Source: Paracoccaceae bacterium
GTDB taxonomy: Bacteria > Pseudomonadota > Alphaproteobacteria > Rhodobacterales > Rhodobacteraceae
Length of the DNA: 43,032 nucleotides
Reading direction: 5' to 3'
NCBI GenBank assembly: GCA_046757205.1
Contig: JBHHXR010000001.1
Location: forward strand, 1 to 43,032
Both the position numbers and the translations under genes were made by a program. Positions within the stretch are counted from its first letter, which is position 1, and each line of letters starts with the position of its first letter. Shown here piece by piece: positions 4,681-37,438 of the stretch. The notes under the pieces are model-generated. The model was not told the origin of the DNA, did not search any database, and was given only the letters and a program-made list of their open reading frames with translations.

Positions 4681-6263
4681 TGGGCCGGTCGGCAGGCCAC
4701 GACAAACCCGATATCGTGATCGGTTCCGGGCCATCGGGCGTGGCCGTGGCTTCCGCGCTGCTGGCGCGCGGCCGACGCGTGACGATGCTCGATGCCGGCA
4801 GGCGCCTCGGCGAAGCGGCGAGCGAACGGCGCGACGAACTCGGGGCTCTTGAGCCGGCGGCCCACGCGCCGGAAATGATCGCCGCTTACAAGCGACCACA
4901 GCTCGGCGCGCCGGACGGCACCATCATGCGCTTCGGGTCGCGTTTCGCCATGGAAGAACCGGACGCCACCTTCGCCGATCCGCCGCCGTGGATCGGCGTC
5001 AGGTCGTCGCGGGCGCGGGGCGGCCTGAGCAATGTCTGGGGCTCCGCCGTGCTGCCCTACCGCCAGCAGGATATCGCCGACTGGCCACCGGAGGCGCGTG
5101 ACCTGGCGCCGCATTACGAGGCCGTGGCGGAGTTCATGCCGGTGGCGGGGCGGCGCGACGCCGTCCAGGAGCTGCTGCCGGATTTCGACATGTCGGGGCG
5201 GCGCCCGCTGACGGAGAGCCCGCAAGCCGGAAAGATACTCGCGAGGCTGGAGAAAAGCCGGCCTCGGCTGAACGCTCTCGGCGTTCACGCGGGAGCGGCG
5301 CGCCAGGCGGTCGGCGAAGGCTGCAGGCTGTGCGGACTGTGCCTGTACGGGTGCCCGTACCGGTTGATCTTCTGCGCTTCCGGGACGGTCGGATCCTTGA
5401 AGGCAAATCCCGCGTTCGACTACGTGCCGGGACACCGGGTGGTTTCGGTCCGCGAAGACGGCGAGAGCGCCGCCGCGGCGTGTCTGCTTGACGGCGGCGG
5501 CGGCAGGGAAGTGGTCGGCCGGCGCGTCTTCCTGGCCGCCGGCGTTCTTGAGACGACGCGGATCATGCTGGCGTCGTTCGGCAAGGCGGAGGAGGAACTC
5601 CTGCTGTCTGACAGCCATTACGCGCTGATGCCGATGCTCGGCGCCGGTTTGTCCCGTCCCCGGCCCGACCGGACGCGGCTGCACACGCTGACGCAGATTT
5701 TCGTGGAGATCCTCTCGCCGGAGATATCGCCCTATGTGATCCACTCGCAGCTTTACACCTACAACGATTTCTATGCGCGGGAGATGCGAGGCCGGTATGG
5801 GCGGCGGGTTCCCTTTTCGCGGCCGCTCTTCGAGTTTCTTGGCCGCCGCCTCGTGGTCGCGCAGACCTTTCTGCATTCCGCGCACTCGGGGCGGATCGGG
5901 CTTCGGCTGGCGACGGGCGACGGCGACAACCGGCTGGCTGCCCGGTTTGTCGAAAATCCCGATACCGTCGGGATCATGCGCCGGGCGCAGCGCCGTCTTG
6001 GCGCGGCGATGCGTTCGGCTGGACTGTTCGCGCTCCTGCCGGCGGTGTCGCACGGCCAGCCGGGATCGAGTTTCCATTGCGGGAGCACCATGCCGATGCG
6101 GCGATCGCCGTCGGGATGGCAAAGCGACCCGGTCGGCCGGCCGGCCGGCCGTGGGCGGGTTCACGTCGTGGACGCGTCCGTGCTGCCGACGATTCCGGCG
6201 ACCACGATCACCTTCGGCGTCATGGCGAACGCGCACCGAATCGGAATGGCGGCACCGGTCTGA
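4680..6263 (+). CDS. GMC-family FAD-dependent oxidoreductase
   Basis: N-terminal dinucleotide fold DIVIGSGPSGVAVASALLARG. C-terminal GMC signature (GSSFHCGSTMPM...VHVVDASVLPTIPATTITFGVMANAHRIG). ATG 4680 overlaps the GT4 stop (TGATG), and GGAGG lies at 4671-4675. Confidence 0.75.
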   Translation: MGRSAGHDKPDIVIGSGPSGVAVASALLARGRRVTMLDAGRRLGEAASERRDELGALEPAAHAPEMIAAYKRPQLGAPDGTIMRFGSRFAMEEPDATFADPPPWIGVRSSRARGGLSNVWGSAVLPYRQQDIADWPPEARDLAPHYEAVAEFMPVAGRRDAVQELLPDFDMSGRRPLTESPQAGKILARLEKSRPRLNALGVHAGAARQAVGEGCRLCGLCLYGCPYRLIFCASGTVGSLKANPAFDYVPGHRVVSVREDGESAAAACLLDGGGGREVVGRRVFLAAGVLETTRIMLASFGKAEEELLLSDSHYALMPMLGAGLSRPRPDRTRLHTLTQIFVEILSPEISPYVIHSQLYTYNDFYAREMRGRYGRRVPFSRPLFEFLGRRLVVAQTFLHSAHSGRIGLRLATGDGDNRLAARFVENPDTVGIMRRAQRRLGAAMRSAGLFALLPAVSHGQPGSSFHCGSTMPMRRSPSGWQSDPVGRPAGRGRVHVVDASVLPTIPATTITFGVMANAHRIGMAAPV

Positions 6264-6424
6264 AGGTGGCGATTCGCCATGCTTCGGGCGCCGATGCCGG
6301 GTCGGTTGAAGGCCGCGTTCTCCGATCAATCCGCCGTTTTGCCTTCAGGATTCCCCGTGGGAGAGGGATTCCGGTCACATTCTGCGCACATGTCAAAAAG
6401 AATTTCGCCGTATTTGAGTGAAAT

Positions 6425-8038
6425 ATGGTATCAAGCCGGTTGTCGGGGAATCGTGCACTGGATCCGAGTGTATGCGTTTGTGTTGGTTTATCGGGGGATG
6501 TGATAGTGGATCCGTTTACTTCAATCACCGCTGGGGGCGGTGAGACTGCCAGAACTGTTGCGATCATCGGGGGCGGGCCTGCTGGCCTGACCGGTGCGTA
6601 TGAGTTGCAGAAACGCTGCGACGATCACGTGCCCATCGTTTTCGAAGGCGGCGATCTGGTCGGCGGGATCGCCCGAACCGAAAGCCACAAGGGCTTCCGG
6701 TTCGATATCGGCGGCCACCGGTTCTTCACCAAGATACCGGAAGTCGAGCAGGTGTGGCATGAGATCATCGGCGACGATTTCATCACCGTTCCGCGGCTCA
6801 GCCGCATCTATTACCGCGGAAAGTTCTTCAACTATCCGCTGAAGCTGTTCAACGCGTTGTCGAATCTCGGCGCCTACGAATCCTTCCGGATCGCCGCCAG
6901 CTTCGGCAAATGGCTGCTGTTTCCTCACAAGAAGGAAGAGACCTTCGACCAGTGGGTGATGAACCGGTTCGGCGGACGGCTCTACATGCATTTCTTCCGC
7001 TCCTATACGGAAAAGGTCTGGGGAGTTCCGTGTAACGAGATCAGCGCAGACTGGGCGGCGCAACGGATCAAGAACCTGTCGCTGGTGAAAGCGGTGTGGA
7101 ACGCGATCAGCGGCGCCAACGACACCTCGAGCCTGATCGAGGAGTTCCAGTATCCGCGCCTCGGGCCGGGCATGATGTGGGAAGCCATGCGCGACCGTAT
7201 CCGCGAGGATGGCGGCGAAGTACGCATGCAGAGCCGCGTGGGGCGGATTTTCCGCAACGGCAAGCGCGTCACCGGCATCGAAGTGACGGAGCGCAACCCG
7301 GAAACCGGCAAGGAACGGTCATATGTTCAGCACGCCGACGAGTTCATCAACTCGATGGCGCTGAGCCAATTGATCGAGAGTTTCGAACCGGCGCCGCCGG
7401 ATGAGGTCGTCGAGGCTGCCCGCAAGCTCAAGTATCGCGATTTCATGATAGTGACCCTGCTGCTGAACCACGCCGATCCGTTCCCGGACAACTGGATCTA
7501 CGTGCACAGCAACGGCGTGAAGGTCGGGCGCATCCAGAATTTCCGGGCGTGGTCCAAGGACATGGTGCCGGAGGAAAACCGCGCCTCGATCGGCATGGAG
7601 TATTTCTGCAACGAAGATGAGCCGCTGTGGTCGATGTCTGACGAGGACCTGATCGAGTTGGCGGGGTCCGAGCTGGAGAAAATCGGTCTCGCCAAGGCGG
7701 AACATGTGATCGACGGTGCGATAATCAGGCAGCCCAAGGCGTACCCGGTATATGATTCCGAGTACATGGAGGTCTTGAAAGTCATCAAGGACTGGGTCGT
7801 TCAGCTCGAAAACTTCCAGACGGTCGGGCGCAACGGTCTGCACCGCTACAACAACCAGGACCACTCCATGCTGTCCGCGATGCTGGCGGCGCAGAACATC
7901 CTTGGTGCCAAGCACGATGTCTGGGAAGTCAACGTGGATCGCGCCTACCATGAGGAATTTCAGACCAAGCCCTACCGTCCGGCCGGCCGCAGGAGGTTAG
8001 CGCCGGACGTGCTGAAGCCGCAGCGTGTCAGCCGGTAG
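6425..8038 (+). CDS. NAD(P)/FAD-dependent oxidoreductase (amine-oxidase / UDP-galactopyranose-mutase-like Rossmann family)
   Basis: Contains VAIIGGGPAGLTGAYEL...GGIARTE..GFRFDIGGHRFFTK...RIYYRGKFFNYPLK. The start is uncertain: ATG 6425, or GTG 6500/6506 just upstream of the GGGPAG motif. Confidence 0.75.
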   Translation: MVSSRLSGNRALDPSVCVCVGLSGDVIVDPFTSITAGGGETARTVAIIGGGPAGLTGAYELQKRCDDHVPIVFEGGDLVGGIARTESHKGFRFDIGGHRFFTKIPEVEQVWHEIIGDDFITVPRLSRIYYRGKFFNYPLKLFNALSNLGAYESFRIAASFGKWLLFPHKKEETFDQWVMNRFGGRLYMHFFRSYTEKVWGVPCNEISADWAAQRIKNLSLVKAVWNAISGANDTSSLIEEFQYPRLGPGMMWEAMRDRIREDGGEVRMQSRVGRIFRNGKRVTGIEVTERNPETGKERSYVQHADEFINSMALSQLIESFEPAPPDEVVEAARKLKYRDFMIVTLLLNHADPFPDNWIYVHSNGVKVGRIQNFRAWSKDMVPEENRASIGMEYFCNEDEPLWSMSDEDLIELAGSELEKIGLAKAEHVIDGAIIRQPKAYPVYDSEYMEVLKVIKDWVVQLENFQTVGRNGLHRYNNQDHSMLSAMLAAQNILGAKHDVWEVNVDRAYHEEFQTKPYRPAGRRRLAPDVLKPQRVSR

Positions 8039-8040
8039 GA

Positions 8041-9048
8041 ATGGGCACCGCTTCTGTGCCGTTACATTTTTGGTCGAGATTCTGGACGCTTGTTCTTCTG
8101 TTTGGCCTCTTTGTCGTCAGTCTCGGACTGGCGGCAGCCGCGACCGGCTGGCAGGAAGCCATCGCGGCATTCGGCCGGATCGGGCGTCTGGAGTTGCTGG
8201 CGCTGCTTGGTCTGTCGGTCGTTAACTACGTCATTCGGGCGGTACGTTGGAGCATCCTGACCCGGACCGTCGGCGTGGGCGGCGGGATCGCTCAGGAATT
8301 CAGGCATTACTTCGGAGGGTTGGCGTTTATGGCGACGCCCGGCCGGCTCGGTGAGTTCGTGCGCCTCCGGTGGCTGTCGCGCGAGGCCGGTGTCCCGGTT
8401 CACCGCGTGCTTCCTGCGGCCATCGCCGAGCGCGCCTTCGACCTGGCCTCCGTCGGCTTGCTTCTTGTCCTGTCCCTGGCTCTGTCCGCGTTCGGACCGG
8501 GATACATCTGGCTGCTGGCGGTCGTCGCCTTGTCGCTTGCCTGGATAGCGTCCAACTCGAGATTGCTGCAGGCCATTGTGACCTTCGCCTGGCGCGCGGT
8601 CGGACGGCTGCCGAGGGTATTTGCCCGCGCGCGGCTGATGGCGAAGGGGATCGGTATCTTCACCCGCCCGGGCGCCGGCGTTCCGATACTGCTTATCGGC
8701 GGATTGGGCTGGTTCTGCGAGGGTTGGGCTTTCGCTCTTCTTCTCGACTGGATGGGGGCGCCGCTTCCATTGTGGGCGGCGGTGGCGATATTTCTGACGT
8801 CGATGACGTCGGGCGCGCTTGCCGGGATGCCCGGTGGCCTCGGAGGCGCCGAGGCGGCGATGGTCGCACTGCTGCTGTTCGCCGATGTTCCCGCCGAGAT
8901 TGCCTTGCCGGCAACCGCGCTTATCAGGGCGGTCACCATGTGGTTCGCCATTCTGGTCGGTCTCATCGTCTTTCCTTTCGCGGAGGCAAAGTCGAAAAGC
9001 CATGCAATATTGCCGGCCCGCGACAATCGGGTCAGAAAACAGAGTTAA
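8041..9048 (+). CDS. Flippase-like / lysylphosphatidylglycerol-synthase-TM-region (UPF0104) family membrane protein
   Basis: About 8 TM helices. N-terminal pattern (LLALLGLSVVNYVIRAVRWSIL) and a Gly-rich C-terminal helix (MPGGLGGAEAAMV) are typical of this family. It starts 3 nt after the preceding stop. Confidence 0.65.
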   Translation: MGTASVPLHFWSRFWTLVLLFGLFVVSLGLAAAATGWQEAIAAFGRIGRLELLALLGLSVVNYVIRAVRWSILTRTVGVGGGIAQEFRHYFGGLAFMATPGRLGEFVRLRWLSREAGVPVHRVLPAAIAERAFDLASVGLLLVLSLALSAFGPGYIWLLAVVALSLAWIASNSRLLQAIVTFAWRAVGRLPRVFARARLMAKGIGIFTRPGAGVPILLIGGLGWFCEGWAFALLLDWMGAPLPLWAAVAIFLTSMTSGALAGMPGGLGGAEAAMVALLLFADVPAEIALPATALIRAVTMWFAILVGLIVFPFAEAKSKSHAILPARDNRVRKQS

Positions 9049-9056
9049 GAGTGTTC

Positions 9057-9185
9057 ATGAGTAACGACGGCAAGAAATGCGATCCGTCTGAGTGCAAGAG
9101 CGGTGACAACGGGCCTGTGTCCGACATTGCCCGGCGCGGGCCACGGCATCGCCGTTTCGGGATGGATGAAGGGTTCTGGCGATGA
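9057..9185 (+). CDS. Candidate 42-aa small ORF (MSNDGKKCDPSECKSGDNGPVSDIARRGPRHRRFGMDEGFWR), hypothetical
   Basis: ATG-initiated. Its stop overlaps the start of the next gene as ATGA (9182-9185). GC3 is similar to neighbouring genes. There is no recognisable family. Confidence 0.2.
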   Translation: MSNDGKKCDPSECKSGDNGPVSDIARRGPRHRRFGMDEGFWR

Positions 9186-10504
9186 CTGCAGGTTTCATGG
9201 GCCGGTTTGAAGACAAGCACTTTCGATGGATCGGATATCTTTCGATAGGCCTGGTTCTGCTCTTTTGCGGGGCGGCGTTCTTTCTGCTGAACCGGGGAAT
9301 GTACTGGGATTTCGCCAACTACTACGATGCCGGCCAGAAGGTATTGGCGGGGCAATTCAACGATCTGTACGATCCGTTCGCGAAGATCGACGGCCAGCCG
9401 CCGCTCAGCAACATGAGCTTTCTCAGTGCGCCATTGACCAGCGTCCTGTACGCGCCGCTGGCACTACTTGAGCCGGCTTCGGCGCTTGTCGCCTTCAAGG
9501 TTCAGAGCGCGGTCTGCTATCTTGTCGGGCTTTCGATCCTGTACTTTCACTTGCGCAGGTTCGTGTCCGGTGCCCCATCTTCGATGGCAAGGTTCTTCGC
9601 ATGTTTCTGGACCGCCGCGCTGGTCTTCCAGCCGTTCTGGACGGTGTACGTTGTCGGCGGTCAGGTGACGCCTTTTGTGTTCATGCTGTTTGTCGTTGCA
9701 CTAGTTCAGATCACCAGGGACAAGATGATTGCGGCCGGCGCGATCTGGATACTGTGCGTCGCCATCAAGCCGGCGTTCGCACCGGGGCTGGTGTTTCTGT
9801 TCGTTGTGCTCGACAACCGGTTTCGAGCGTCGGTCCTGGCATTCGGTTCCGCGGCGGTTCTTGTTTCGCTGGGGGTTTTCGGCGTCGAGCCTCACCTTGT
9901 GCTGGTGGCGCGCGTGCTCGAAGAATCCCGAAATCTGAACCCGGCCTACTTCAACAGCAACATGTTCGCCTGGTTGGAGCCGCTCTGGCTGTCGGGCGAA
10001 GAACTCAACAATCTGGATTTTGCGCCGCCGGGCCTGAAATTGGTGTCCACGACACTGCGACTGGCGGTGATCGCCGGTCTGGTCCTGGTCTATTACCGGA
10101 TTCGGAAGTCAGCCCCGTCGCCGCGGGCCGGACGCCACGTATCGGTGGTCTTCGCCCTGGTGACACCGCTGGTTCTTACACCGATTGCGTGGGCGCATTA
10201 CCTGTCGGTGCTTTTCATCCCGCTGATGTATGTGCTGGCCGACGAGAATAGTTTCTCCCGTTCGGCCCGGGTGCTGGTCGCTATTATCGTGGCCGTTTCG
10301 CTCTTTCAGAACCTGTTGTTGTGGCAGATATACATTCATTTCTTCGAGGTTGTTACCAAAGGCGAATATCTTGCGGCCGGCCTTGTTCGGAGCCTGCCCA
10401 TGCTTCTTACTGTCGCGCTTCTGTTCGTCTGGGCGCCGGCGTTTCAAAGAAGTTACGGCAGTTCCGCCTGGCGAACGAGAGACGGGGAAAGCGGCGATCC
10501 ATGA
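9182..10504 (+). CDS. Polytopic membrane protein, GT87/DUF2029-like (GT-C-type mannosyltransferase-like)
   Basis: 440 aa with more than 10 TM helices. The first-loop motif YWDFANYYDAGQKVLAGQFNDLYDP resembles the DUF2029/PimE-type signature. Confidence 0.6.
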   Translation: MTAGFMGRFEDKHFRWIGYLSIGLVLLFCGAAFFLLNRGMYWDFANYYDAGQKVLAGQFNDLYDPFAKIDGQPPLSNMSFLSAPLTSVLYAPLALLEPASALVAFKVQSAVCYLVGLSILYFHLRRFVSGAPSSMARFFACFWTAALVFQPFWTVYVVGGQVTPFVFMLFVVALVQITRDKMIAAGAIWILCVAIKPAFAPGLVFLFVVLDNRFRASVLAFGSAAVLVSLGVFGVEPHLVLVARVLEESRNLNPAYFNSNMFAWLEPLWLSGEELNNLDFAPPGLKLVSTTLRLAVIAGLVLVYYRIRKSAPSPRAGRHVSVVFALVTPLVLTPIAWAHYLSVLFIPLMYVLADENSFSRSARVLVAIIVAVSLFQNLLLWQIYIHFFEVVTKGEYLAAGLVRSLPMLLTVALLFVWAPAFQRSYGSSAWRTRDGESGDP

Positions 10505-10713
10505 ACCACACCCAAGCGGAAAACGCCAACGCTGCCGCGAGAACGTAGAGGAAAAAGTAGCAAGGTGGCATGATGCAGGAACGATCAGGCAATATTGAAG
10601 AGTTCAAGGCCGTCAAACTATTGCCGAAATTTGGGCAGAGTGGAATGTCAGGTAGATGACTGGATCGATGCTGAAGTGGAAGTTGTGATGCCGGTCTGTA
10701 CAGGAACACCGCA

Positions 10714-11721
10714 ATGATCGATCCGACGGCCAAGAGGGTTCTCGTTACCGGCGGCGCCGGGTTTCTCGGCAGCCATCTGTGCGACCGTCTGGTGGCAGAG
10801 GGCCACGAGGTTCTGTGCCTTGACAACTATTTCACCGGCAGGCGCGCGAATGTCGCCCATCTGATGACCGAGGCGAATTTCGAACTCATCCGCCACGATG
10901 TGACCTTTCCGCTCTATGTGGAAGTCGACGAAATCTACAATCTGGCCTGTCCGGCGTCGCCGGTGCACTACCAGTACGATCCGGTCCAGACCACCAAGAC
11001 GTCCGTTCACGGCGCGATAAACATGCTCGGGCTGGCCAAGCGAACGGGCGCGAAAATCCTCCAGGCCTCGACGTCGGAGGTCTACGGCGATCCTGAAATT
11101 CATCCGCAGACCGAGGATTACTGGGGCAACGTGAATCCGGTCGGCCCGCGATCCTGCTACGACGAGGGGAAACGTTGCGCGGAGACGCTGTTTTTCGATT
11201 ATTACCGTCAGCACGCGCTGCCGATAAAAGTGGCGAGGATCTTCAACACCTATGGCCCGAGGATGCACCCCGACGACGGCAGGGTCGTTTCCAATTTCGT
11301 AATGCAGGCGCTGCGCGGCGAGCCGATCACGATTTTCGGCGACGGGTCGCAGACGCGCAGTTTCTGTTACGTGGACGATCTGATCGACGGGTTGGTCCGG
11401 CTGATGGAGGCGCCGGGGGAAGTAACCGGGCCGATAAACATCGGAAATCCCACGGAACTGACGATCCTCGGGTTGGCGCGGAAGGTCATAGAGATGACCG
11501 GATCGGCTTCGCAGATCATCAACGAGGCCCTGCCGCAGGATGATCCGGTGCGCCGGAAACCCGACATAGCGCGGGCGCGCGAATTGTTGGGTTGGGAACC
11601 GAAGGTGACGCTCGACGAGGGACTGGAGCCGACAATATCGTATTTTTCGCGGATCGCCGGGAAGTCGGGACCGGTCGGTGTCGCTTCGGACGCGGTCGAC
11701 GTAACGAAGTTGGGGCCATGA
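10714..11721 (+). CDS. uxs: UDP-glucuronate decarboxylase (UDP-xylose synthase)
   Basis: Near-canonical UXS sequence: [16 protein letters not shown]...[12 protein letters not shown]...[29 protein letters not shown]...[37 protein letters not shown]...[26 protein letters not shown] lies 7 nt upstream of the ATG. Confidence 0.93.
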
Positions 11722-13262
11722 CATCGGTGTTTGCAAGCCCCCGCGAGAACGGCGTTTGGGGGCAGTTGTGGTATGGAGAATCCGTCTGGTCGGCGGGTCT
11801 GTGGTACCTGTTTTCCGTGGCGTGCCTGCTGTGGGTGTTCCTGGCCAACGGTGTGCCGCTTTATTACTTCGATACCGGCGGATACCTGCTTCAGGGCGAG
11901 CGGTTCCTGGACATCGTCGGCCTGATGCCCGATGACGGCGCCGCCGCCACGCAGAGTTCCGCCGCAGGCGGTGCCGGCACCGGGGCGCAGAAAGACAATA
12001 CCGTCCAGGGCGGCCGTTCGCTCATTTACGGAATAACCCTTGCCCTGTTCCACACCTTCATGGGGTTCGCTTCGGTGGTTTTTGCCCAGGCGGCGCTGCT
12101 GGTTGTCGCGGTCTGGCTTTCGGTTCGCGTCCTTCTGAGGGTGCACCCGGGCCACCTTTCGGTGGCGGCGACCACCGGATTGTGCATCTTGGCGGCCAGC
12201 CTCGGTTCCGCAGCTTTCTATACTGCGTTCCTGATGCCGGACATTTTCGCGCCGATACAGTTGCTGATGCTGGCGGCTCTGATGACGCTTCTGCCCGGCA
12301 TGCGCTGGTGGGAAACTGCCCTGGCTTTCATCCTGGCGTCGACATCTGTCGTGATGCATCCGTCGCACCTGCTGATCGCGCTGGTATTGGTGCCCGTGGC
12401 GCCGCTTGCGGCCTTTCTATCGGGTTCCCGGCGGGTGGTTCTGTCGAGCGCGCTGGTTGCCGCCGTCGCGCTGATCGGCGTGACCGAACGGTTTGCCTTC
12501 GTCGTGGCAACGGAAACGGTGACCGACTCCGAAGTGGTTTACCGGCCTTTCATCACGGCGCGTCTCATCGTGGACGGGCCGGGCCTGGAATATCTCGACG
12601 ACGTGTGCCCGCAGGCCGGGCTGGCGACCTGCGAGTTGCGAAAGCTACTGGTCCGGCCACGTCAGATCACCGCCTCGCACATAATTTTCGCCCAGTCCGA
12701 GGAACTCGGGTCGTTGAGGCTGCTCCCCGAGGAAACGCAAGAACGGATAACGGAAGAACAGGTAATTCTGTTGCGTGGGGTCCTGATGACCCACCCGATT
12801 TCGTTTGTCCGCTCGGTGGTCGGCAACACGATGACGCAGCTTTTCTTCGTCAACGCCTATGTGACGCTTCCCGATGGCGGCGTGACGGATAGGCTGAGGA
12901 GACTGATACCGGAGGAATCGAAGGAACTCACCGACGCGAGACTGACCTCCAGGATCGGCTGGCTGCCGTGGTTCGCGCTCTTCCAACTGGTCATCTACGG
13001 TCTTTCGCTTGTCACCATCATTGCCGGCGTCTTCCTGAGATCGGTCGGCGCCGGCTGGCCCATCCGCACTTTCGCGGCGACCGTGTTTGTCGGCATCCTG
13101 GCCAATTCGCTGGTTTGCGGCGCCGTCTCGCAACCTTCTGACCGCTACGGTGCGCGGATAGTCTTCCTGCTTCCTGTGCTCGCCATTCTGTTTTTTTCAA
13201 CCAAACGCGCGTCTGACGCGCGGAGCAGTCGGGCCGGACCCACCGGCGAAGGTCTGACATGA
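11718..13262 (+). CDS. Large polytopic membrane protein, possible GT-C-fold glycosyltransferase or polymerase
   Basis: ATG 11718 overlaps the uxs stop (ATGA). It has multiple N-terminal TM helices with the first-loop motif [11 protein letters not shown], a soluble block of about 150 aa, and C-terminal TM helices. There is no confident family match. Confidence 0.6.
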
Positions 13263-14287
13263 ACGGCGGAACCAACGAGCACGGCCTCACGATCAGCGTG
13301 ATCATGCCGGCATTCAATGCCTCGGGCCTGCTGACGCAGGTGCTTCCGCCATTGGTCGAGATGCTGCGGGCGGGCGAGGTCTGCGAGGTGCTCCTGGTCG
13401 ACGACTGTTCGACCGATGACACCGTCGAGAGGGCGCGGGAACTTGGCGCCTCGGTGCTCGAAATGCCGAGGAACGGCGGGCCGGGCGCGGCGCGGAACCT
13501 CGCCGCGCAGAAAGCCGCCGGGGATATTCTGTGGTTTGTCGATTCCGATGTCGTCGCCTGGGCCGGTGGCGCCAAGAAGATACGCGAGGCTTTCGAGGAC
13601 CCGACGGTGGACGCCGTTTTCGGCTCCTATGATGAAACTCCCTCGGGAACACCGTGGATCAGCCGGTACAAGAACCTCGTGCACCGTTACTATCACCAGC
13701 GCGGCAACCGCGAAGCATCGACTTTCTGGGCCGGATGCGGCGCCGTGAGGAAATCCGCCTTCCTGTCAGCGGGCGGCTTTGACGTGGTCAGGTACACGAT
13801 GCCCTCGATCGAGGATATCGAACTGGGTTACCGGCTGCGGGATCGCGGGGGCCGGATTCTGCTCCTGCCCGACCTTCTGGCGAAGCACCTCAAGGTGTGG
13901 ACCTTCGGTAACGTCATTCACACCGACATCTTTCGCCGGGCGATACCGTGGTCGCGGCTGATGATCGCCAACCGGTCGGTTACCGACGATCTCAATACCA
14001 GCCGTGACGAGCGGGTGAGGGCCGTGATGGCCGCCGCATTGCTGATCTGCCTTCTGATCGTGCCGTTCGTGCCGGGTATCTGGCCGCTGGTTGTCGCGGC
14101 GCTGGTTGCCGTGTTCGTACTGAACCGGTCGTTCTTCCTGTTCATGCTGCAAAACGGTGGCCGCAGATTCGCGATGACCGCCGTTCTGTTCCACCAGCTC
14201 TACTATTTCTACAGCTCCGCCGCGTTCGTGTTTTGTCTGGCCGAGGCCGCGATTATGGGCAGAAAGACACAGTCGGATCCGGGTTGA
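13259..14287 (+). CDS. Glycosyltransferase family 2 with C-terminal TM helices
   Basis: Contains ISVIMPAFNASGLL...LLVDDCSTDDT...NGGPGAARN...FVDSDV (GT-A DxD). ATGA overlap with the upstream gene. Confidence 0.85.
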   Translation: MNGGTNEHGLTISVIMPAFNASGLLTQVLPPLVEMLRAGEVCEVLLVDDCSTDDTVERARELGASVLEMPRNGGPGAARNLAAQKAAGDILWFVDSDVVAWAGGAKKIREAFEDPTVDAVFGSYDETPSGTPWISRYKNLVHRYYHQRGNREASTFWAGCGAVRKSAFLSAGGFDVVRYTMPSIEDIELGYRLRDRGGRILLLPDLLAKHLKVWTFGNVIHTDIFRRAIPWSRLMIANRSVTDDLNTSRDERVRAVMAAALLICLLIVPFVPGIWPLVVAALVAVFVLNRSFFLFMLQNGGRRFAMTAVLFHQLYYFYSSAAFVFCLAEAAIMGRKTQSDPG

Positions 14288-14383
14288 TGGGTAGAGCTTT
14301 CGGAGAATGTCATGGCGTGGTAAACACGGAAGCGTTGACGGCGTTTGGAAAATTCGTTTGTGAACAAGATATTAGGTGAGACA

Positions 14384-15307
14384 ATGGATGCATCGGTCGA
14401 ACTTGTGGGCACTGACCCGGCGCAACGGTCGGAACTCATGGCCAGGCTGGAGGGTCTTAGCCTGAGTGTGGTGGTGCCGGCGTACAACGAGGAAGGTTCG
14501 GTACGCGGGACGGTCGAGGAAATCCGGCAGGCGCTGGACGCGACCCCGGTCGAATACGAAATCATCGTCGTCGACGACGGATCCTCCGACAACACCAGGG
14601 CCGAAGCGGCCGCGTCGGGCGCGACGGTCAAGGCCAATCAGGTGAACATCGGATACGGCGCCTCCCTGAAACTCGGCATCCGGTCGAGCAGGTACGAATA
14701 CGTCGCCATTCTCGACGCCGACGGCACCTACCCGGCCCGCTACCTTCCGGGGATGCTGGACATGGCGCGGGACGCCGACATGATCGTCGGCGACCGGGGC
14801 GCGTCGATGAAGAACGTTCCGCTGATCCGCAAGCCGGCCAAGTACGTCTTGAACAGTCTCGCGAGTTTTCTGGCGCAGCGAAAGCTGAATGACCTGAACT
14901 CGGGTCTTCGGGTTTTCCGGCGCAGCGAACTGGTGCCGTTCCTGCCGCTGCTGCCCAACACCTTCAGTTTCACCACGACGATCACGCTTTGCATGTCGTG
15001 CAACAACAAGCGGATGTTCTATACGCCCATCGAATACCGCAAGCGTGTCGGCAACTCGAAGATACGGCCGGTCGATTTCATCAATTTCATCGTCCTTGTG
15101 CTGCGCGTCATCACCCTTTTCAATCCGCTGCGCGTGTTCGTTCCGCTGGGCGGGATATTCTTCCTCATGGGCCTGCTGAAGCTTACCTATGACATCACCC
15201 AGTGGAACCTTTCGGAAACCGCGGTATTCGCGTTTCTCGCCTCGATCATGATCTGGTCGCTTGGGCTGATTGCCGACATGATTTCCCGGCTTCACCTGCG
15301 TCCCTGA
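14384..15307 (+). CDS. GT2 polyprenyl-phosphate glycosyltransferase (ArnC/GtrB/Dpm1-like)
   Basis: Contains LSVVVPAYNEEGSV...EIIVVDDGSSDNT...NIGYGASLK..ILDADGTYP and two C-terminal TM helices. ATG 14384 is preceded by AGGTGAG; the listed ORF start at 14345 is TTG. Confidence 0.85.
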   Translation: MDASVELVGTDPAQRSELMARLEGLSLSVVVPAYNEEGSVRGTVEEIRQALDATPVEYEIIVVDDGSSDNTRAEAAASGATVKANQVNIGYGASLKLGIRSSRYEYVAILDADGTYPARYLPGMLDMARDADMIVGDRGASMKNVPLIRKPAKYVLNSLASFLAQRKLNDLNSGLRVFRRSELVPFLPLLPNTFSFTTTITLCMSCNNKRMFYTPIEYRKRVGNSKIRPVDFINFIVLVLRVITLFNPLRVFVPLGGIFFLMGLLKLTYDITQWNLSETAVFAFLASIMIWSLGLIADMISRLHLRP

Positions 15308-33303: not shown

Positions 33304-33360
33304 TAGTGAATCTGTAGTCAATCTTGGAAATTGTAGTGGAAAATTTCGTTTCGTAGTGAA
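33304..33360. promoter_or_regulatory. Four direct TAGTSRA repeats in the AT-rich divergent promoter region (candidate operator array)
   Basis: TAGTGAA at 33304, TAGTCAA at 33315, TAGTGGA at 33334 and TAGTGAA at 33354 (spacings 11, 19 and 20 bp). They lie between the desaturase start (33242) and the XRE regulator start (33409). Confidence 0.4.
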
Positions 33361-33408
33361 TATCCTGCTACCTGCGTGCAACCACTGCAACGGAAACGGC
33401 ACGGATTC

Positions 33409-34257
33409 ATGGACAAACGGGAAATTGCAAAGGCGTTTCGCGGCCGGTTGCGGCGGTTGCTGGAGCAGGAGGAGAACGGGACGGCGCAGTTTCTGCGCGA
33501 CACCGGGCTGGACCGTTCGGCGCTGGGGCAGTTTCTCGACGAGACGCGCGACCGGCTTCCGCGGGCCGAGACGCTGCACCGGATCGCGGCGGCGCGCGGG
33601 GTGTCGGTGGACTGGCTGCTGAACCTGTCGAACGCGCCGGAGGGCCGCCAGCAGGTGACGCCGAGCGTGCAGATAGAGCGTGCGGTTTATCCCGGCGGCG
33701 GCACACCGCTCGATGCCTGGCGTGAAGCGGCGGCGGGCTACAAGCTGCGCTATGTACCGTCGCTTCTGCCCGACATGCTGGGGCTGGCTGACCTGTCGGA
33801 GCCGGAGGCCCGCGCGGAGGCGGAGGCGGCGGCGCGCGGCGCGGCGTCGGAGAACGTGCTGGAAGGCGCGCATCTGGGTGACACGGATATCGAGATCGCC
33901 ATGCCGGTGCAGCGTCTGCAGGACCTGGCGGAGGGCACCGGCTTCTTCCGGCAACTGGGTCCGGATCTGCGGCGGCGCCAGCTTCGGCACATGGCGGCGA
34001 CCTGCGAGGAAACCTACCCGGCGCTGCGGCTGCATCTCTATGACGGCACCGAGGCCTATGCCGCGCCGTTCACGGTGTTCGGGCGGGTGCGGGCGGCAGT
34101 CTATCTGGGCGAGGCCTACATGGTGGTGACCTCGAGCGAGCAGGTGCGGGCGCTGGCGCGGATATTCGACAACCTGGTGCGCCAGGCGGTGGTCGGGCCG
34201 GACCTGGTGCACGAATGGCTGTCGGAACGGGCGCGGGAGGTTGCGCCGGGGCGCTGA
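33409..34257 (+). CDS. XRE-family helix-turn-helix transcriptional regulator with a C-terminal domain of about 200 aa
   Basis: The N-terminal HTH-like segment is FRGRLRRLLEQEENGTAQFLRDTGLDRSALGQFLD...ETLHRIAAARGVSVDWLL. ATG 33409 is preferred over GTG 33376. Confidence 0.7.
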   Translation: MDKREIAKAFRGRLRRLLEQEENGTAQFLRDTGLDRSALGQFLDETRDRLPRAETLHRIAAARGVSVDWLLNLSNAPEGRQQVTPSVQIERAVYPGGGTPLDAWREAAAGYKLRYVPSLLPDMLGLADLSEPEARAEAEAAARGAASENVLEGAHLGDTDIEIAMPVQRLQDLAEGTGFFRQLGPDLRRRQLRHMAATCEETYPALRLHLYDGTEAYAAPFTVFGRVRAAVYLGEAYMVVTSSEQVRALARIFDNLVRQAVVGPDLVHEWLSERAREVAPGR

Positions 34258-34263
34258 GGGTAC
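34115..34263. repeat. Direct repeat copy 1 (149 bp): last 47 codons, stop and 6 nt of the XRE regulator gene
   Basis: A base-by-base comparison shows it is identical to 34992-35140. Confidence 0.97.
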
Positions 34264-34991
34264 GCTAGTGACTATCTGTTTTGTCCGAGTTTACCTATTA
34301 GCATGGCCTCGATGGGAGCAAGTGCGTCCTGAAACTCCTTGTTGAATTCATCATCTTCAGACCAATTGTCGTAGAGTATATCCCTTTTCTTGCGTGCAAT
34401 CCTTTCGTAGTCCTCTTTCATGCCGTCGCTGGCGTCAGGGTCGATCAGCCGGAGGTGATTTTGGACTACCATGAGTAATTCGGTCTGTAGCTTGTGAATT
34501 CGATGAAATAAGTCTCTTACGTCCGGACCCCAGATCGCTTCTGCCTCTAAGAAATCTGAATACAAATTTGCGCGAACGTCTTGAGCTTTTTTCCAACGAT
34601 TTTCGTAGGCTGTTGTTATTCCATAATATCGGATTTGGTCAGCATTCATCCCTTCGGCTTCATTTTCGGGCGGTTTCGGCATTTCATTGCTGAACATCGC
34701 GGGATTCCGCACGCCCTTTATTGCATCCCGATATTTGTAAAGGTTAACGAGCAAACGGCGTGCAAGTTCCCTGTCGGAGTGCCATCGCGTTTGTGATTTC
34801 CATGTGCTCAGTCCGATTCCTGCGATGATAGCGCCGGCAGCGGCGCTCAAGGCAATGACTCCATTGGCCAAAGCTGAAACCCAGTCCGCGAAAGTCACCA
34901 ACAGGTCCTTTCAATGCTGATTATTAGTCAGTGAGTATACATCGCGCGCTTGTGCAAGACCATCGAATGCGACGATACAGCATGGTCGTAA
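34264..34991. mobile_element. 728-bp low-GC insert carrying one gene with its own putative promoter, bracketed by the 149-bp direct repeats; no recombinase present
   Basis: Base composition drops sharply at both repeat boundaries. There are no terminal inverted repeats. A TATACT -10-like hexamer lies on the minus strand at 34934-34939. Confidence 0.6.
34272..34898 (-). CDS. Orphan membrane-anchored protein (N-terminal hydrophobic segment of about 30 aa plus a charged helical domain), unknown function
   Basis: The ORF is about 208 aa. GTG 34898 lies 7 nt after AAAGGA (TTG 34901 is the alternative). The N-terminus is VTFADWVSALANGVIALSAAAGAIIAGIGLSTW. AT-rich codon usage is unlike the flanking genes. 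Confidence 0.7.
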   Translation of the reverse strand: MTFADWVSALANGVIALSAAAGAIIAGIGLSTWKSQTRWHSDRELARRLLVNLYKYRDAIKGVRNPAMFSNEMPKPPENEAEGMNADQIRYYGITTAYENRWKKAQDVRANLYSDFLEAEAIWGPDVRDLFHRIHKLQTELLMVVQNHLRLIDPDASDGMKEDYERIARKKRDILYDNWSEDDEFNKEFQDALAPIEAMLIGKLGQNR

Positions 34992-35134
34992 CCTACATGG
35001 TGGTGACCTCGAGCGAGCAGGTGCGGGCGCTGGCGCGGATATTCGACAACCTGGTGCGCCAGGCGGTGGTCGGGCCGGACCTGGTGCACGAATGGCTGTC
35101 GGAACGGGCGCGGGAGGTTGCGCCGGGGCGCTGA
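34992..35134 (+). pseudogene. Detached duplicate of the XRE regulator 3' end (47 codons plus stop), non-functional fragment
   Basis: It translates to YMVVTSSEQVRALARIFDNLVRQAVVGPDLVHEWLSERAREVAPGR, identical to the end of 33409-34257. It lacks the N-terminal 236 aa. Confidence 0.8.
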
Positions 35135-35140
35135 GGGTAC
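34992..35140. repeat. Direct repeat copy 2 (149 bp)
   Basis: It is identical to 34115-34263. It is followed by native-looking high-GC flank and a terminator-like hairpin. Confidence 0.97.
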
Positions 35141-35155
35141 ACCGGCCAAAGGCAA

Positions 35156-35178
35156 CGCCCGGCCGCAGGGGCCGGGCG
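35156..35178. terminator. GC-rich hairpin (9-bp stem, 5-nt loop) between the XRE 3' duplicate and the convergent Tat-signal gene
   Basis: The sequence is CGCCCGGCC-GCAGG-GGCCGGGCG. It is probably the original terminator of the XRE gene. There is no strong T-tract. Confidence 0.35.
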
Positions 35179-35230
35179 CGCGGATTTCACGATACCGGCC
35201 GCCAGTTGGCGACGCGGTCGCGGCTCAGCC

Positions 35231-35716
35231 TCACGGAAGTGTCACGCCGCCGTCCGCCGGGGGTGGTCCGCCGCCGGGGCCGCCAGGCGGCAACCCGCCG
35301 CCACCGCCACCGCCGCCGCCCGGAGGCGTCGTGCCGCCGTCGGATGGGGGTGTTCCGCCGCCACCGCCGTCCGGAAGGCCGCCGTCTCCGGAGCCGCTCG
35401 GCCCCGAACTGCTCGGCCCCGAACTGCTCGGCCCGGAACCGCTCGGCCCCGAACCGCTCGGAGCGCTGGCGCTCGGCCCGGAACTGCTCGGCCCGGAACC
35501 GCTGGGGGCGCTGGCGCTCGGCCCGGAACTGCTCGGGCCTGAACTGCTGGGGGCGCTGGACCGGCTGGCGTCGTCGCCGCTGCTGGCACGTGCGATGCTG
35601 AGCGTGGTCATCGCCGGGGCGATGTAGATCACGCCGCCGGCCAGGGCGGTGCGGGTCAGCAGCTTGCGGCGGCTGATGGGCGCCGTGTCGGGGGTCTTGT
35701 TTTTTCTGGGTTTCAT
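35231..35716 (-). CDS. Tat-signal secreted low-complexity Ser/Gly/Pro-rich repeat protein
   Basis: GAGGA lies 7 nt upstream of the ATG. The twin-arginine leader is ISRRKLLTRTALAGGVIYIAPAMTTLSIARA. The mature part consists only of S/G/P/A/D/T residues. Confidence 0.6.
   Translation of the reverse strand: MKPRKNKTPDTAPISRRKLLTRTALAGGVIYIAPAMTTLSIARASSGDDASRSSAPSSSGPSSSGPSASAPSGSGPSSSGPSASAPSGSGPSGSGPSSSGPSSSGPSGSGDGGLPDGGGGGTPPSDGGTTPPGGGGGGGGGLPPGGPGGGPPPADGGVTLP
35396..35560. repeat. Eleven tandem in-frame 15-bp units (consensus GCTCGGCCCSGAACY, with variant GCTSGGRGCGCTGGM)
   Basis: Units were counted directly: 35396-35410, 35411-35425, and so on to 35546-35560. A higher-order 45-bp periodicity is visible. 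On the minus strand they encode SGPSS/SGPSG/SAPSG pentapeptides. Confidence 0.95.
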
Positions 35717-35877
35717 GTCTGAGTCCTCAACTGAAGTATTCAGTAAGCAACCCCCACACGGGGGCCAGACTACGCCACGCTTCCTGACGATTCGCGGACA
35801 CCGGCTGTCAGCGAAATGTCAGTTGCGTGGTTTCCGCACGCCCGCCCGCCCGGCCCGGTTCGCCGGCTGGGGCGGGG

Positions 35878-35893
35878 TGCACACGCGTGTGCA
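35878..35893. promoter_or_regulatory. Perfect 16-bp palindrome TGCACACGCGTGTGCA in a 640-bp non-coding spacer
   Basis: It is exactly self-complementary and is followed 17 nt later by a T7 run in an AT-rich patch. It could be an operator or an RNA hairpin; the role is unknown. Confidence 0.3.
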
Positions 35894-36258
35894 TACGGGT
35901 AACCGCTTGATTTTTTTGAATTATCGAAGCAGACATCGCCAGAAAGTATCGGCCTTGACCCACCTGCGAAACCGTCATGCCACTCGTCAGTCAAGAAGGT
36001 TAAGTGAACAGATGATTGCCCGCTGGGCGGCGCTCGGAACTCTTCGGGTCAAGGCGGCTCTCCTGTCGTTTGCAACCTTGAGTCGCAGATCATCCCGTTT
36101 GTGGATCCTGAACGTCAACAGCCCCTGGCCGAATACCGGTTTCTCTTCGCCGTTTCCGGGCGGTAGGGTAGGGATGTGCTGGCCCGGATGCCGAGGCCGG
36201 TTTCCCTGTGGTGCAGGGTCGGTGATTCACCCACCAACGCGGCGGCAAGAAACATGGT

Positions 36259-36285
36259 GGGCAGATTGCCCGCCCTACGCTTGCT
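36259..36285. repeat. 27-bp direct repeat, copy A (GGGCAGATTGCCCGCCCTACGCTTGCT), contains hairpin GGGCA-GAT-TGCCC
   Basis: It matches 37412-37438 at 25 of 27 positions and lies 76 nt upstream of the PD40 gene start. Confidence 0.8.
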
Positions 36286-36360
36286 TTTTCAGCAGTCCGT
36301 TGGGACGCCTTCCACGGTGCGCTTACGTTGCCGAACAGTAAACCAAATGGGAAATGTCGG

Positions 36361-37335
36361 ATGACAAAAAGGAGACGGATATTCCATGTCAGCCTTGCGG
36401 GGCTTCTGCTCGTCGTGGCTGGCAGTGGAGCGATATCGCAAGAAATCTTCATATCCTCGCCGGCAACCATTTATCGCGATGACGGGGCGCGGCAGCTGAA
36501 CATAAACCTGCCGGGCAGTTTACAGAACCCGGCGTTTTCTCCCGATGGCAATTCAATCGTTTTCACGCGATTTCGTGCCGGCTACAACTTGGGCATATCG
36601 GACATTTTTGCTCTGGACCTGAATACAGAAACAGTGACGAGTCTGGTGTCTGACGGTAGCATTAATGTAAATTCGCCGGGATCGTCCTGGAACGGCAAAA
36701 CTGGTTCCATTGTTTATTCTTCAGATCAAGGTAGACATGATGAAATTTACACCATTACGAAAACTGATAATACATGGCGAATAATGCAGATTACCGATCG
36801 GGTAGAGAGACAATCGTATGAACCAAGTTTTTCGCCAAACGGAAATTGGATAGTATTCGAGTCGCATTATATAGATGTAGAAGGAAACGGTGTTATTACG
36901 AAATACCGCGTGGATGGAAGTACAGATTACATTGATCTTACCGCGCTGGCCGAGGACAACAGGCAACCGAATTGGTCGCCGGATGGCCGCAGAATTCTGT
37001 ACCAAACCTTCAGGAACGGAAACTGGTCGATCTTTACCATGGACACAAACGGTAACAACAAAAGGTCCGTGACCAGTGTCGCAGAAAGCGCAACTGACGC
37101 CGTGTTTTCCCATGATGGTCGGTGGATCGTGTACAGTTCGGAAAACGCCGAAGTGGACAATGCCAACATTTACAAGGTTGCGTCCGATGGTGGCGCACCC
37201 ATCCGGGTCACGCGATTTGGCGGCTACGACGGCGCGCCATCGATCTCGCGTGACGGCACGAAGATTGTATTCGAGTCGTCGACCGGCGATCCCGACGGAT
37301 CGGCTGGGACAAGGATTTGGATTATCGACAACTGA
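36361..37335 (+). CDS. Secreted PD40/TolB-like beta-propeller repeat protein
   Basis: Signal peptide MTKRRRIFHVSLAGLLLVVAGSGAISQE. Repeated PD40 motifs are present (FSPDGNSIVF, FSPNGNWIVF, WSPDGRRILY, FSHDGRWIVY, ISRDGTKIVF). GC content is visibly lower than in the flanks. Confidence 0.85.
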   Translation: MTKRRRIFHVSLAGLLLVVAGSGAISQEIFISSPATIYRDDGARQLNINLPGSLQNPAFSPDGNSIVFTRFRAGYNLGISDIFALDLNTETVTSLVSDGSINVNSPGSSWNGKTGSIVYSSDQGRHDEIYTITKTDNTWRIMQITDRVERQSYEPSFSPNGNWIVFESHYIDVEGNGVITKYRVDGSTDYIDLTALAEDNRQPNWSPDGRRILYQTFRNGNWSIFTMDTNGNNKRSVTSVAESATDAVFSHDGRWIVYSSENAEVDNANIYKVASDGGAPIRVTRFGGYDGAPSISRDGTKIVFESSTGDPDGSAGTRIWIIDN

Positions 37336-37411
37336 ACGGGTCGCGACACCCAAACCGAGCAGGACACCGGCCAACGGGTTGAATCCAGCATTTGGAACCC
37401 TCTGTTTCGCG

Positions 37412-37438
37412 GGGCAGATTGCCCGCCCACCGCTTGCT
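37412..37438. repeat. 27-bp direct repeat, copy B (GGGCAGATTGCCCGCCCACCGCTTGCT)
   Basis: It lies 77 nt downstream of the PD40 stop. It is embedded between the inverted arms CCCTCTGTT (37398-37406) and AACAGAGGG (37478-37486). Confidence 0.8.

Follow-up and report, generated by a model that had tools for sequence, protein, structure and literature searches.

Introduction

Insertion with long target duplication is the described phenomenon closest to the locus analysed here. It was first recorded in 2000 (Nobusato; Gene 259:99), with a link to restriction-modification cargo but no mechanism. Furuta, Abe & Kobayashi 2010 (PMC2853133) delineated a class of insertions bounded by direct repeats of 25–423 bp and free of mobile-element genes, for which the empty site aligns with the repeat and the repeats often span a start or a stop codon. 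The cargo in their cases consisted mainly of restriction-modification systems, and the authors suspected a role for its DNA-breaking activity. According to Lim et al. 2012 (PMC3457768), this mode of insertion extends to "other DNAs" beyond restriction-modification.

Here, we describe a single-gene insertion of foreign DNA with a 149-bp target duplication in a Paracoccaceae bacterium (contig JBHHXR010000001.1). The insertion is real, recent and recombinase-free. Its architecture is less novel than an earlier note on this DNA had assumed, because it has already been described as "insertion with long target duplication" (PMC2853133).

Several other known systems resemble the locus in part. Integron cassettes, including those at non-canonical attG insertion sites, are also promoterless-looking single-gene units of less than 1 kb, but integrase-mediated insertion makes no 149-bp target duplication such as the one found here. 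CIMEs and integrative elements restoring gene 3' ends likewise display direct repeats at the 3' end of an intact target gene, and CIMEs contain no recombinase inside the unit. Their att cores, however, are short and element-borne, whereas the repeat here is 149 bp of host sequence, and their sites are normally reused in relatives, which was the case at none of 64 related loci here. Laboratory insertion-duplication mutagenesis, used in pneumococci and others, generates the same homology-cargo-homology topology and is reversible via the repeats. The circle is built with host homology in that procedure; in our case, the only evident natural origin for one would be the excision of the unit itself. 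Homology-facilitated and double illegitimate recombination in natural transformation, and NHEJ capture of heterologous DNA, are similar to our case in being recombinase-free chromosomal uptake of short foreign DNA. These routes yield mainly insertions accompanied by deletions or short indels. A long target duplication is not known as a hallmark of any of them. Uptake through illegitimate joints and NHEJ capture have reportedly been treated by de Vries and Wackernagel in 2002, by Hülter and Wackernagel in 2008 and by Dupuy and colleagues in 2019.

Results

The direct repeat and the target gene

The window, meaning the whole analysed stretch of 43,032 nucleotides, contains the following features at the locus.

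33409..34257, + strand: XRE-family HTH regulator, the target gene (ORF list; weak HTH_19 and DUF5753 matches)
34115..34263, + strand: direct repeat copy 1, the genuine 3' end of the XRE gene with its stop and 6 nt; aligns with the single copy in contig L073
34264..34991, no strand assigned: foreign insert of 728 bp with a GC content of 48% (composition; missing from the empty-site contig L073)
34272..34898, - strand: cargo gene P0001, 208 aa (45 homologues, conserved alignment, AF2 model)
34902..34991, - strand: leader of the cargo gene, 90 nt, with the SD AAAGGA and a TATACT hexamer and without attC-like structure
34992..35140, + strand: direct repeat copy 2, a duplicated promoterless XRE 3' fragment joined to the original downstream DNA
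35157..35177, + strand: GC-rich hairpin GCCCGGCC-GCAG-GGCCGGGC (from the sequence), directly 3' of the XRE gene in the empty allele

The two repeat copies agree at 149 of 149 bp in a base-by-base comparison, confirming the identity claimed in the earlier note, and the identity stops at both ends. No further copy occurs in the window, where the next-longest exact direct repeat measures 17 nt as against 149 bp. The repeat has a GC content of 0.705 (window, 0.649), and the same segment is ordinary single-copy coding sequence in relatives. It runs from the second base of codon 247 through 46 complete codons to the TGA stop codon (34255–34257) and six bases beyond; the previous description as 47 codons, the stop and 6 nt was thus essentially right, although the first of these codons contributes only two bases. 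An exact 28-mer from the repeat end had no match in the JGI metagenome contigs and IMG/VR.

With the ATG at 33409 as its start, the regulator has 282 aa; a GTG at 33376 opens the longest ORF. The regulator's 717 homologues are mostly from Paracoccaceae and Amaricoccus-like bacteria, the closest at 72%, and the upstream gene order of phosphonate-binding, desaturase and XRE genes is kept in relatives. Because the duplication spans the stop codon, the regulator stays intact, in the filled and the empty alleles alike. This supports the earlier reading of the locus as a cargo between two direct repeats that preserves the target gene. When 64 related XRE loci were each compared with themselves, a duplicated 3' end was found in none of them, and no island occupied the site. 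The tested relatives have neither the cargo gene nor the duplication, so the empty state is ancestral.

The insert and its cargo gene

The insert has a GC content of 0.482, compared with 0.649 for the window and 0.705 for the repeat, which substantiates the earlier observation that it is AT-richer than its surroundings. GC3 of its ORF is 0.52, versus 0.77–0.90 in the neighbouring host genes. This single ORF lies on the minus strand and extends over 34272–34901 from a TTG, or encodes 208 aa from the GTG at 34898, with AAAGGA located 4–7 nt 5' of the cargo start. Both the ORF with its SD and the TATACT hexamer noted earlier are present, but the hexamer gained no support as a promoter, since the consensus scan identified no sigma-70-type promoter there; the promoter and terminator scans called nothing at the insert. 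Folding of the leader gave z-scores of +0.65 and +1.18, i.e., it is no more structured than its shuffles. Only 8 nt separate the cargo stop codon from the repeat.

A search for inverted repeats at the insert ends found none, and the sole similarity at the joints is a weak 5/9 match (family D2) adjoining the right joint. The insert had no DNA match in the plasmid collection, and its DNA similarity to members of the cargo family is limited to the ORF core.

P0001 is predicted to consist of a transmembrane helix at the N terminus and, after it, a bundle made up entirely of helices (AF2, pLDDT 88). It had no match in Pfam, PADLOC, PHROG, NCBIfam, a PDB sequence search, or Foldseek against PDB and BFVD. 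The phage protein search gave no match and the plasmid protein search only one weak match; a nuclease signature was not found in the protein. Its homologues (28–52% identity) occur in Vibrio, Aeromonas and phages. The V. metschnikovii homologue, 47–52% identical, is a true integron cassette between VCR-like attC sites, bracketed by VCR-like repeats of 119–122 nt. Elsewhere, homologues are found as prophage accessory genes, one of them (L076) adjoining a prophage integrase, and as solitary islets. Direct repeats of the host-gene type were not found around three family members (L002, L003 and L008), and another (L004) has 24-nt palindromic repeats, terminator- or REP-like in appearance. At other loci, the family is never linked to XRE sequence. 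A membrane-anchored helical protein with relatives travelling as integron cassettes and prophage morons might most likely serve an accessory envelope or phage-exclusion type of function, which we put forward with little confidence.

The empty site

An independent public contig, L073 (run SRR29324606), contains the left flank, one 149-bp copy and the right flank without the insert. Its positions 1–920 correspond to window positions 33344–34263 (100% over 920 bp), and positions 772–1199 align with 34992–35425 (98.6% over 434 bp). The regulator protein encoded there is identical to that of the target (P0047). L073 differs from the window by a 6-bp indel downstream; it comes from a different run and possibly from a different strain. 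The hairpin stands 17 nt after the single repeat copy, so that the XRE gene is followed directly by the hairpin at 35157–35177, the arrangement that the earlier note had anticipated for an empty site. In the filled allele, the hairpin is displaced by 877 bp from the XRE gene; the terminator scan missed it because its T-run is short.

As L073 lacks the insert, the site is polymorphic between near-identical strains. Together with the perfect repeats, the empty allele upholds the earlier proposal of a recent event. The filled allele is known from one MAG contig only, and neither the cargo protein nor a junction-spanning 67-aa ORF had a second record in the other assemblies searched.

Comparison with mobile elements

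We tested ORFs up to about 8 kb away on both flanks and found no mobility genes and no integrase or transposase match among them. These ORFs mostly have housekeeping Pfam domains, and a few are without a match. A tRNA, tmRNA or ncRNA (Rfam) target was not found at the site. The inverted-repeat search and the tested ORFs bear out the earlier note in that recombinase, terminal inverted repeats and a short target-site duplication are all lacking, and the layout is not that of a standard IS (no terminal inverted repeats), integron cassette (no attC) or tRNA island (no tRNA target).

Mobile-element candidates were rejected individually. An integron cassette is rejected by the missing attC, given the 8 nt past the stop codon and the leader that folds like its shuffles. 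IS, transposon and MITE are rejected by the lack of inverted repeats at the insert ends and by a duplication of 149 bp, which is not short. A recurrent att site is rejected by the absence of a duplicated 3' end from all 64 related XRE loci. The last result, the lack of an integrase nearby, and a second repeat copy that is 100% host sequence with host composition also disfavour an att-type element supplying a surrogate 3' end, which had been suggested previously.

A neighbouring low-GC islet

A second low-GC gene is located 1.1 kb downstream of the first insert, between shorter repeats.

36259..36285, + strand: PD40 islet, left-hand direct repeat of 27 nt, 25/27 identical to 37412–37438
36361..37335, + strand: PD40 beta-propeller protein, secreted, 324 aa, the second foreign cargo (Pfam PD40, 3e-32)
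37412..37438, + strand: PD40 islet, right-hand direct repeat of 27 nt (repeat comparison; islet with both repeats in L074)

The repeat reads GGGCAGATTGCCCGCCC...GCTTGCT. It has two matches in the window versus none in 100 shuffles. The gene has a GC content of about 49% and a GC3 of 0.55, and the best homologues of the protein, at no more than 60% identity, are from Delta- and Gammaproteobacteria and Bacteroidales. The islet is present in contig L074 with both repeats and in L075 with the left repeat. An empty site for it was not found, and the 27-nt repeats could have another origin.

Discussion

We judged class membership by the criteria of Furuta et al. 2010, treating restriction-modification cargo as a criterion of their screen and not of the mechanism. 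Where the class has direct repeats longer than about 25–30 bp, the locus has 149 of 149 identical bp. One repeat copy aligning to both flanks is found in the empty site of L073, and the ORFs tested in or beside the insert, about 8 kb on each side, include no mobility genes. The cargo is a TM-anchored helical protein instead of a restriction-modification system. Our locus and the published cases have in common a foreign, gene-sized insert with deviant GC content and no transposase or integrase, a stop-spanning repeat sparing the target gene, and an empty site in a close relative. Unlike in the published cases, the cargo is a 208-aa membrane protein without a nuclease signature, it is carried by an uncultured alphaproteobacterium, the repeat copies have kept 100% identity, and two such islets lie side by side.

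We consider it probable that the insertion arose, with its long target duplication, by illegitimate joining of a foreign fragment without any element-encoded recombinase. The duplicated sequence is that of the target: both repeat copies are host sequence, and a near-identical strain has one copy and no insert. In the proposed mechanism, which the sequence does not itself display, both ends of a linear foreign fragment of about 0.73 kb would have joined the chromosome by illegitimate joining, either homology-independent or with microhomology. The two joints would have been placed 149 bp apart in overlapping order, possibly where breaks were staggered, between two sister chromosomes, or when replication switched template to the foreign DNA and then returned. 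The 149 bp would then have been copied during gap filling or replication, which would explain perfect copies with host composition. Once in place, the repeats might undergo RecA-type recombination, deleting the unit without a scar to give the empty site and an 877-bp circle. Tandem amplification of the unit could result from this recombination as well.

An unlikely alternative is a Campbell-type integration. A circle of at least 877 bp carrying the 149-bp XRE 3' end and the foreign gene would have integrated by a single homologous crossover, the reverse of which excises it. A single crossover would yield precisely the observed product, RecA recombination can work with 149 bp of perfect identity, and empty and filled alleles both exist. 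The product is, however, the same as that of a one-step insertion with target duplication, so it does not distinguish the two. The Campbell-type route also presupposes that host sequence of 70% GC had already been joined to foreign DNA of 48% GC. The insert has no replicon or plasmid match and the cargo family elsewhere is never found with XRE sequence. Circles released from the existing structure could nevertheless reintegrate at empty sites in sister cells.

It seems improbable that the unit was integrated site-specifically by a recombinase supplied in trans. The 728-bp unit would then be a decayed or non-autonomous CIME-like element with attL and attR flanks and an att core within the 149 bp. 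Integrative elements often target and restore gene 3' ends, integrase-less elements with att repeats are known, and a relative of the cargo lies beside the prophage integrase in L076. However, the ORFs tested up to about 8 kb away include no integrase, the 64 related XRE loci show neither a duplicated 3' end nor an island, and 149 bp of host-like coding sequence far exceeds the usual att cores. The insert, which leaves 8 nt past the stop codon, also retains no other element sequence.

We regard it as hardly probable that the filled form was mis-threaded in assembly, with an empty chromosome and a free circle or tandem array as the origin of the loop, or with a chimeric contig. Assembly graphs do not resolve a repeat-insert-repeat loop unambiguously, and such an error would agree with a filled form limited to a single MAG contig while the empty form appears in an independent assembly from a related sample. 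Against this, any assembler needs both novel junctions to be physically present in reads, and a chimera needs two independent joins, each exactly at a repeat boundary. An 877-bp circle that does not replicate could arise only from the integrated form, and the empty contig derives from another run and, in view of the 6-bp indel downstream, possibly from another strain. The two-step route of tandem duplication followed by homologous replacement of a part by diverged DNA, for which the proposal made by Lim et al. 2012 (PMC3457768) for repeat-insert-repeat patterns in rRNA operons is a precedent, is very improbable here, as a single insertion takes fewer events, the insert is a complete, compositionally foreign gene and not a diverged allele of anything at the locus, and neither L073 nor the 64 related loci have homologous sequence between the XRE gene and the hairpin.

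Returning to illegitimate joining with a long target duplication, the neighbouring low-GC gene flanked by 27-nt repeats fits a process with variable-length duplications. It is possible, if doubtful, that such insertion is a general host-driven route for single genes, operating without a mobile-element enzyme or nuclease cargo. This suggestion is based on two adjacent low-GC genes whose target-type repeats differ in length (149 bp versus 27 bp) and on cargo families that are elsewhere carried as integron cassettes and phage morons. The nuclease-free cargo argues for duplication by host processes rather than by the cargo.

How bacteria fix a single foreign gene that brings along neither transposase nor integrase is poorly understood. 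The present case is unusually clean, combining a tiny one-gene insert, perfect repeats and an empty allele in a near-identical strain. In practical terms, the target gene is left intact and the new gene would remain removable or amplifiable via the repeats. If the host-driven reading is true, the 877-bp unit of repeat and gene could be a minimal "homology cassette" that is excisable and re-integrable, and that could spread in the population by homologous recombination, for example through transformation or gene transfer agents.

An identical 149-bp repeat encloses foreign DNA

At the XRE-type regulator gene, base comparison of positions 34115-34263 and 34992-35140 in the window revealed identity at 149/149 positions, ending sharply on both sides. 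The repeat occurs twice in the whole 43,032-bp window, and a chance origin is not an issue because the next-longest exact direct repeat, searched within 8 kb, reaches only 17 nt. It consists of two bases of codon 247, 46 codons, the TGA stop (34255-34257), and six further bases, and is the true 3' end of the regulator gene. Between the two copies lie:

34264-34991: insert, 728 bp, GC 0.482
34272-34898/34901, minus strand: cargo ORF, 208/209 aa, the sole ORF of the insert

[quoted passage not shown] The insert is foreign DNA, whereas the duplicated 149 bp are host sequence. The cargo ORF lies on the minus strand, thereby converging on the regulator gene, and has a Shine-Dalgarno sequence (AAAGGA). 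The insert contains a TATACT hexamer, yet a consensus promoter scan called no sigma-70 promoter there.

The earlier note had described identical 149-bp repeats around a low-GC single-gene insert lacking a recombinase, and we confirmed this description. Among the flanking ORFs that were tested, out to about 8 kb in each direction, none is a recombinase gene; their products are sarcosine oxidase alpha, an AraC/DJ-1 regulator, a phosphonate-binding protein, a fatty-acid desaturase, PtsP, and aspartokinase. A recombinase-bearing element was rejected because no integrase or transposase is among them. An IS or MITE was rejected for want of inverted repeats at the insert ends, and a tRNA or ncRNA target because searches yielded no tRNA, tmRNA, or Rfam family. 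As it now stands, the insert is not an integron cassette either, since its stop codon is only 8 nt away from the repeat and its 90-nt leader showed no better folding than shuffled sequence.

The insertion site is polymorphic

The regulator protein is also encoded on an independent public Logan contig, SRR29324606_148011 (L073, 1,199 bp). Its positions 1-920 match window 33344-34263 with 100% identity, and 772-1199 match 34992-35425 with 98.6%, the sole difference being a 6-bp indel that lies further downstream, within a proline-rich repeat. The order in L073 is therefore left flank, a single 149-bp copy, and right flank. In a three-way alignment, the GC-rich hairpin at window 35157-35177 stands 17 nt past the repeat in L073, with the insert absent, which bears out the search for an empty site proposed in the earlier note. 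The site is thus polymorphic between near-identical strains. Each of 64 related loci, with XRE proteins at 36-72% amino-acid identity, has a single XRE 3' end, and the cargo gene is absent from all of them, indicating that the empty state is ancestral and the filled state a recent gain. A recurrent att site was rejected, as the XRE 3' end is duplicated in 0/64 of these loci. Gene order is conserved upstream of XRE in the related loci and not conserved downstream.

The cargo belongs to a widely exchanged family

The 208-aa cargo belongs to a conserved family of proteins of about 205-235 aa (45 matches at 28-52% identity). The predicted structure combines an N-terminal transmembrane helix with a confident all-helical bundle (pLDDT 88), and searches for protein-family, defence-system, PDB, and viral-fold matches returned none. 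The homologue in Vibrio metschnikovii (L009) is a bona fide cassette flanked by VCR-like attC sites. The cassette array there (4765-7542, 7581-9654) has VCR-like attC repeats of 119-122 nt, with a Septu PtuA-like ATPase cassette two cassettes away from the homologue. The Defluviimonas homologue lies within an operon with an AAA ATPase. On two IMG/VR prophage contigs, the homologue is separated from the prophage integrase gene by about 1.6 kb containing two ORFs (L076, 117-3674), or adjoins an Erf-like annealing protein/RecE-like exonuclease module (L088, 4983-7775); both are typical positions of phage accessory (moron) genes. In another 65%-GC alphaproteobacterium (L008, 5975-7283), the homologue and a second TM-anchored ORF of 196 aa form a 1.3-kb islet of 40-48% GC, which begins a few bases after the argB stop codon, has no flanking repeats, and shares the ribosome-binding region AAAGGACCT with the insert in the window. 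These varied settings mark the cargo as a widely exchanged accessory gene of the "moron" or cassette type. From such settings, one might guess at a role in the envelope or in phage exclusion.

In a low-GC metagenomic genome (L004; also L005-L007), a 24-nt element containing the perfect palindrome CTTACATGTAAG is found at 5892-5915, 6644-6667, and 7005-7028. One copy follows the cargo-family gene, one follows the adjoining 73-aa gene, and the third precedes both. These copies are possibly terminators or REP-like elements, but may also be sites of recombination.

A second low-GC islet lies downstream

Apart from the insert, the window has one strongly low-GC patch, the gene of the PD40 islet:

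36259-37438: PD40 islet, a low-GC single gene between 27-nt direct repeats
36259-36285 and 37412-37438: 27-nt direct repeats of the islet, 25/27 identical

The gene (36361-37335) encodes a secreted PD40 beta-propeller protein, with GC of about 49% and GC3 of 0.55; the best homologues, at no more than 60% identity, are outside Alphaproteobacteria. The repeat pattern has two matches in the window versus none in 100 shuffles, and the repeat core GGGCAGATTGCCC itself forms a small hairpin. The two longest local direct repeats of the contig bracket exactly its two lowest-GC genes, and the islet is possibly a second event of the same type beside the first. It is also present in runs SRR29324610 and SRR29324590 (Logan contigs L074, with both repeats, and L075, with the left repeat), and is therefore the older of the two and fixed more widely; an islet-free site was not found.

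Between the two islets, a minus-strand ORF of 161 aa (35231-35716) is Gly/Ser/Pro-rich with a twin-arginine-like signal peptide and has about nine copies of a 15-bp tandem repeat (35365-35551). The 6-bp indel relative to L073, which ends within the repeats, falls in its proline-rich part, and the tract is therefore length-polymorphic. The following 540 bp or so (35717-36258; GC 58-61%) have no convincing gene, and a 230-aa ORF at 35649-36341 has no Pfam match; 35717-36258 may consist of decayed or non-coding DNA marking a synteny breakpoint downstream of XRE. Elsewhere, a broad stretch of moderately lower GC (6400-15200; about 56-62% versus 65-70%) possibly represents a gene cluster acquired earlier.

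Possible origin of the target duplication

Insertions with long target duplication were reported in 2000, and Furuta et al. 2010 (PMC2853133) surveyed the class. As described in that survey, the direct repeats measure 25-423 bp, mobile-element genes are missing, and a related genome has an empty site with which the repeat can be aligned; the repeats often cover a start or stop codon, thereby keeping the target gene intact. The insertion at the XRE locus shares all these features, and it belongs to this already described class. However, the published screen required a restriction-modification system as the cargo, which ours is not. The authors suspected a DNA-breaking activity of the cargo itself, and they demonstrated amplification of repeat-flanked units of this kind. 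A further report (PMC3457768) extends the mode to "other DNAs" and names tandem duplication followed by recombination as an alternative route.

Our cargo shows no nuclease features, which makes host repair or replication a likelier source of the duplication than the cargo. We infer that illegitimate recombination attached a linear piece of foreign DNA to the chromosome at two points, 149 bp apart and in overlapping order, possibly at staggered breaks, across sister chromosomes, or by an out-and-back template switch. Synthesis would then fill in the 149 bp, giving perfect repeats of host composition. The earlier note proposed a Campbell-type crossover of a circle into the host. This would yield the same product, but as an origin it presupposes a circle already joining host and foreign DNA. 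The interpretation given in that note holds in part. The repeat is long and of host origin, and the site is unused in the 64 relatives, both of which make a site-specific recombinase acting in trans less likely. The filled allele is known from one contig only, but assembly mis-threading is unlikely, since reads must contain each of the two novel junctions. The repeats now permit scarless RecA-mediated loss, which would leave the empty site and an 877-bp circle; they likewise permit tandem amplification, and circles of this kind could insert again at empty sites.

In summary, the feature at the XRE locus is a real, recent, polymorphic, and recombinase-free single-gene insertion with a 149-bp target duplication. 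What it adds to the known class is a cargo free of nuclease features, a clean empty site, and perhaps a second event alongside.
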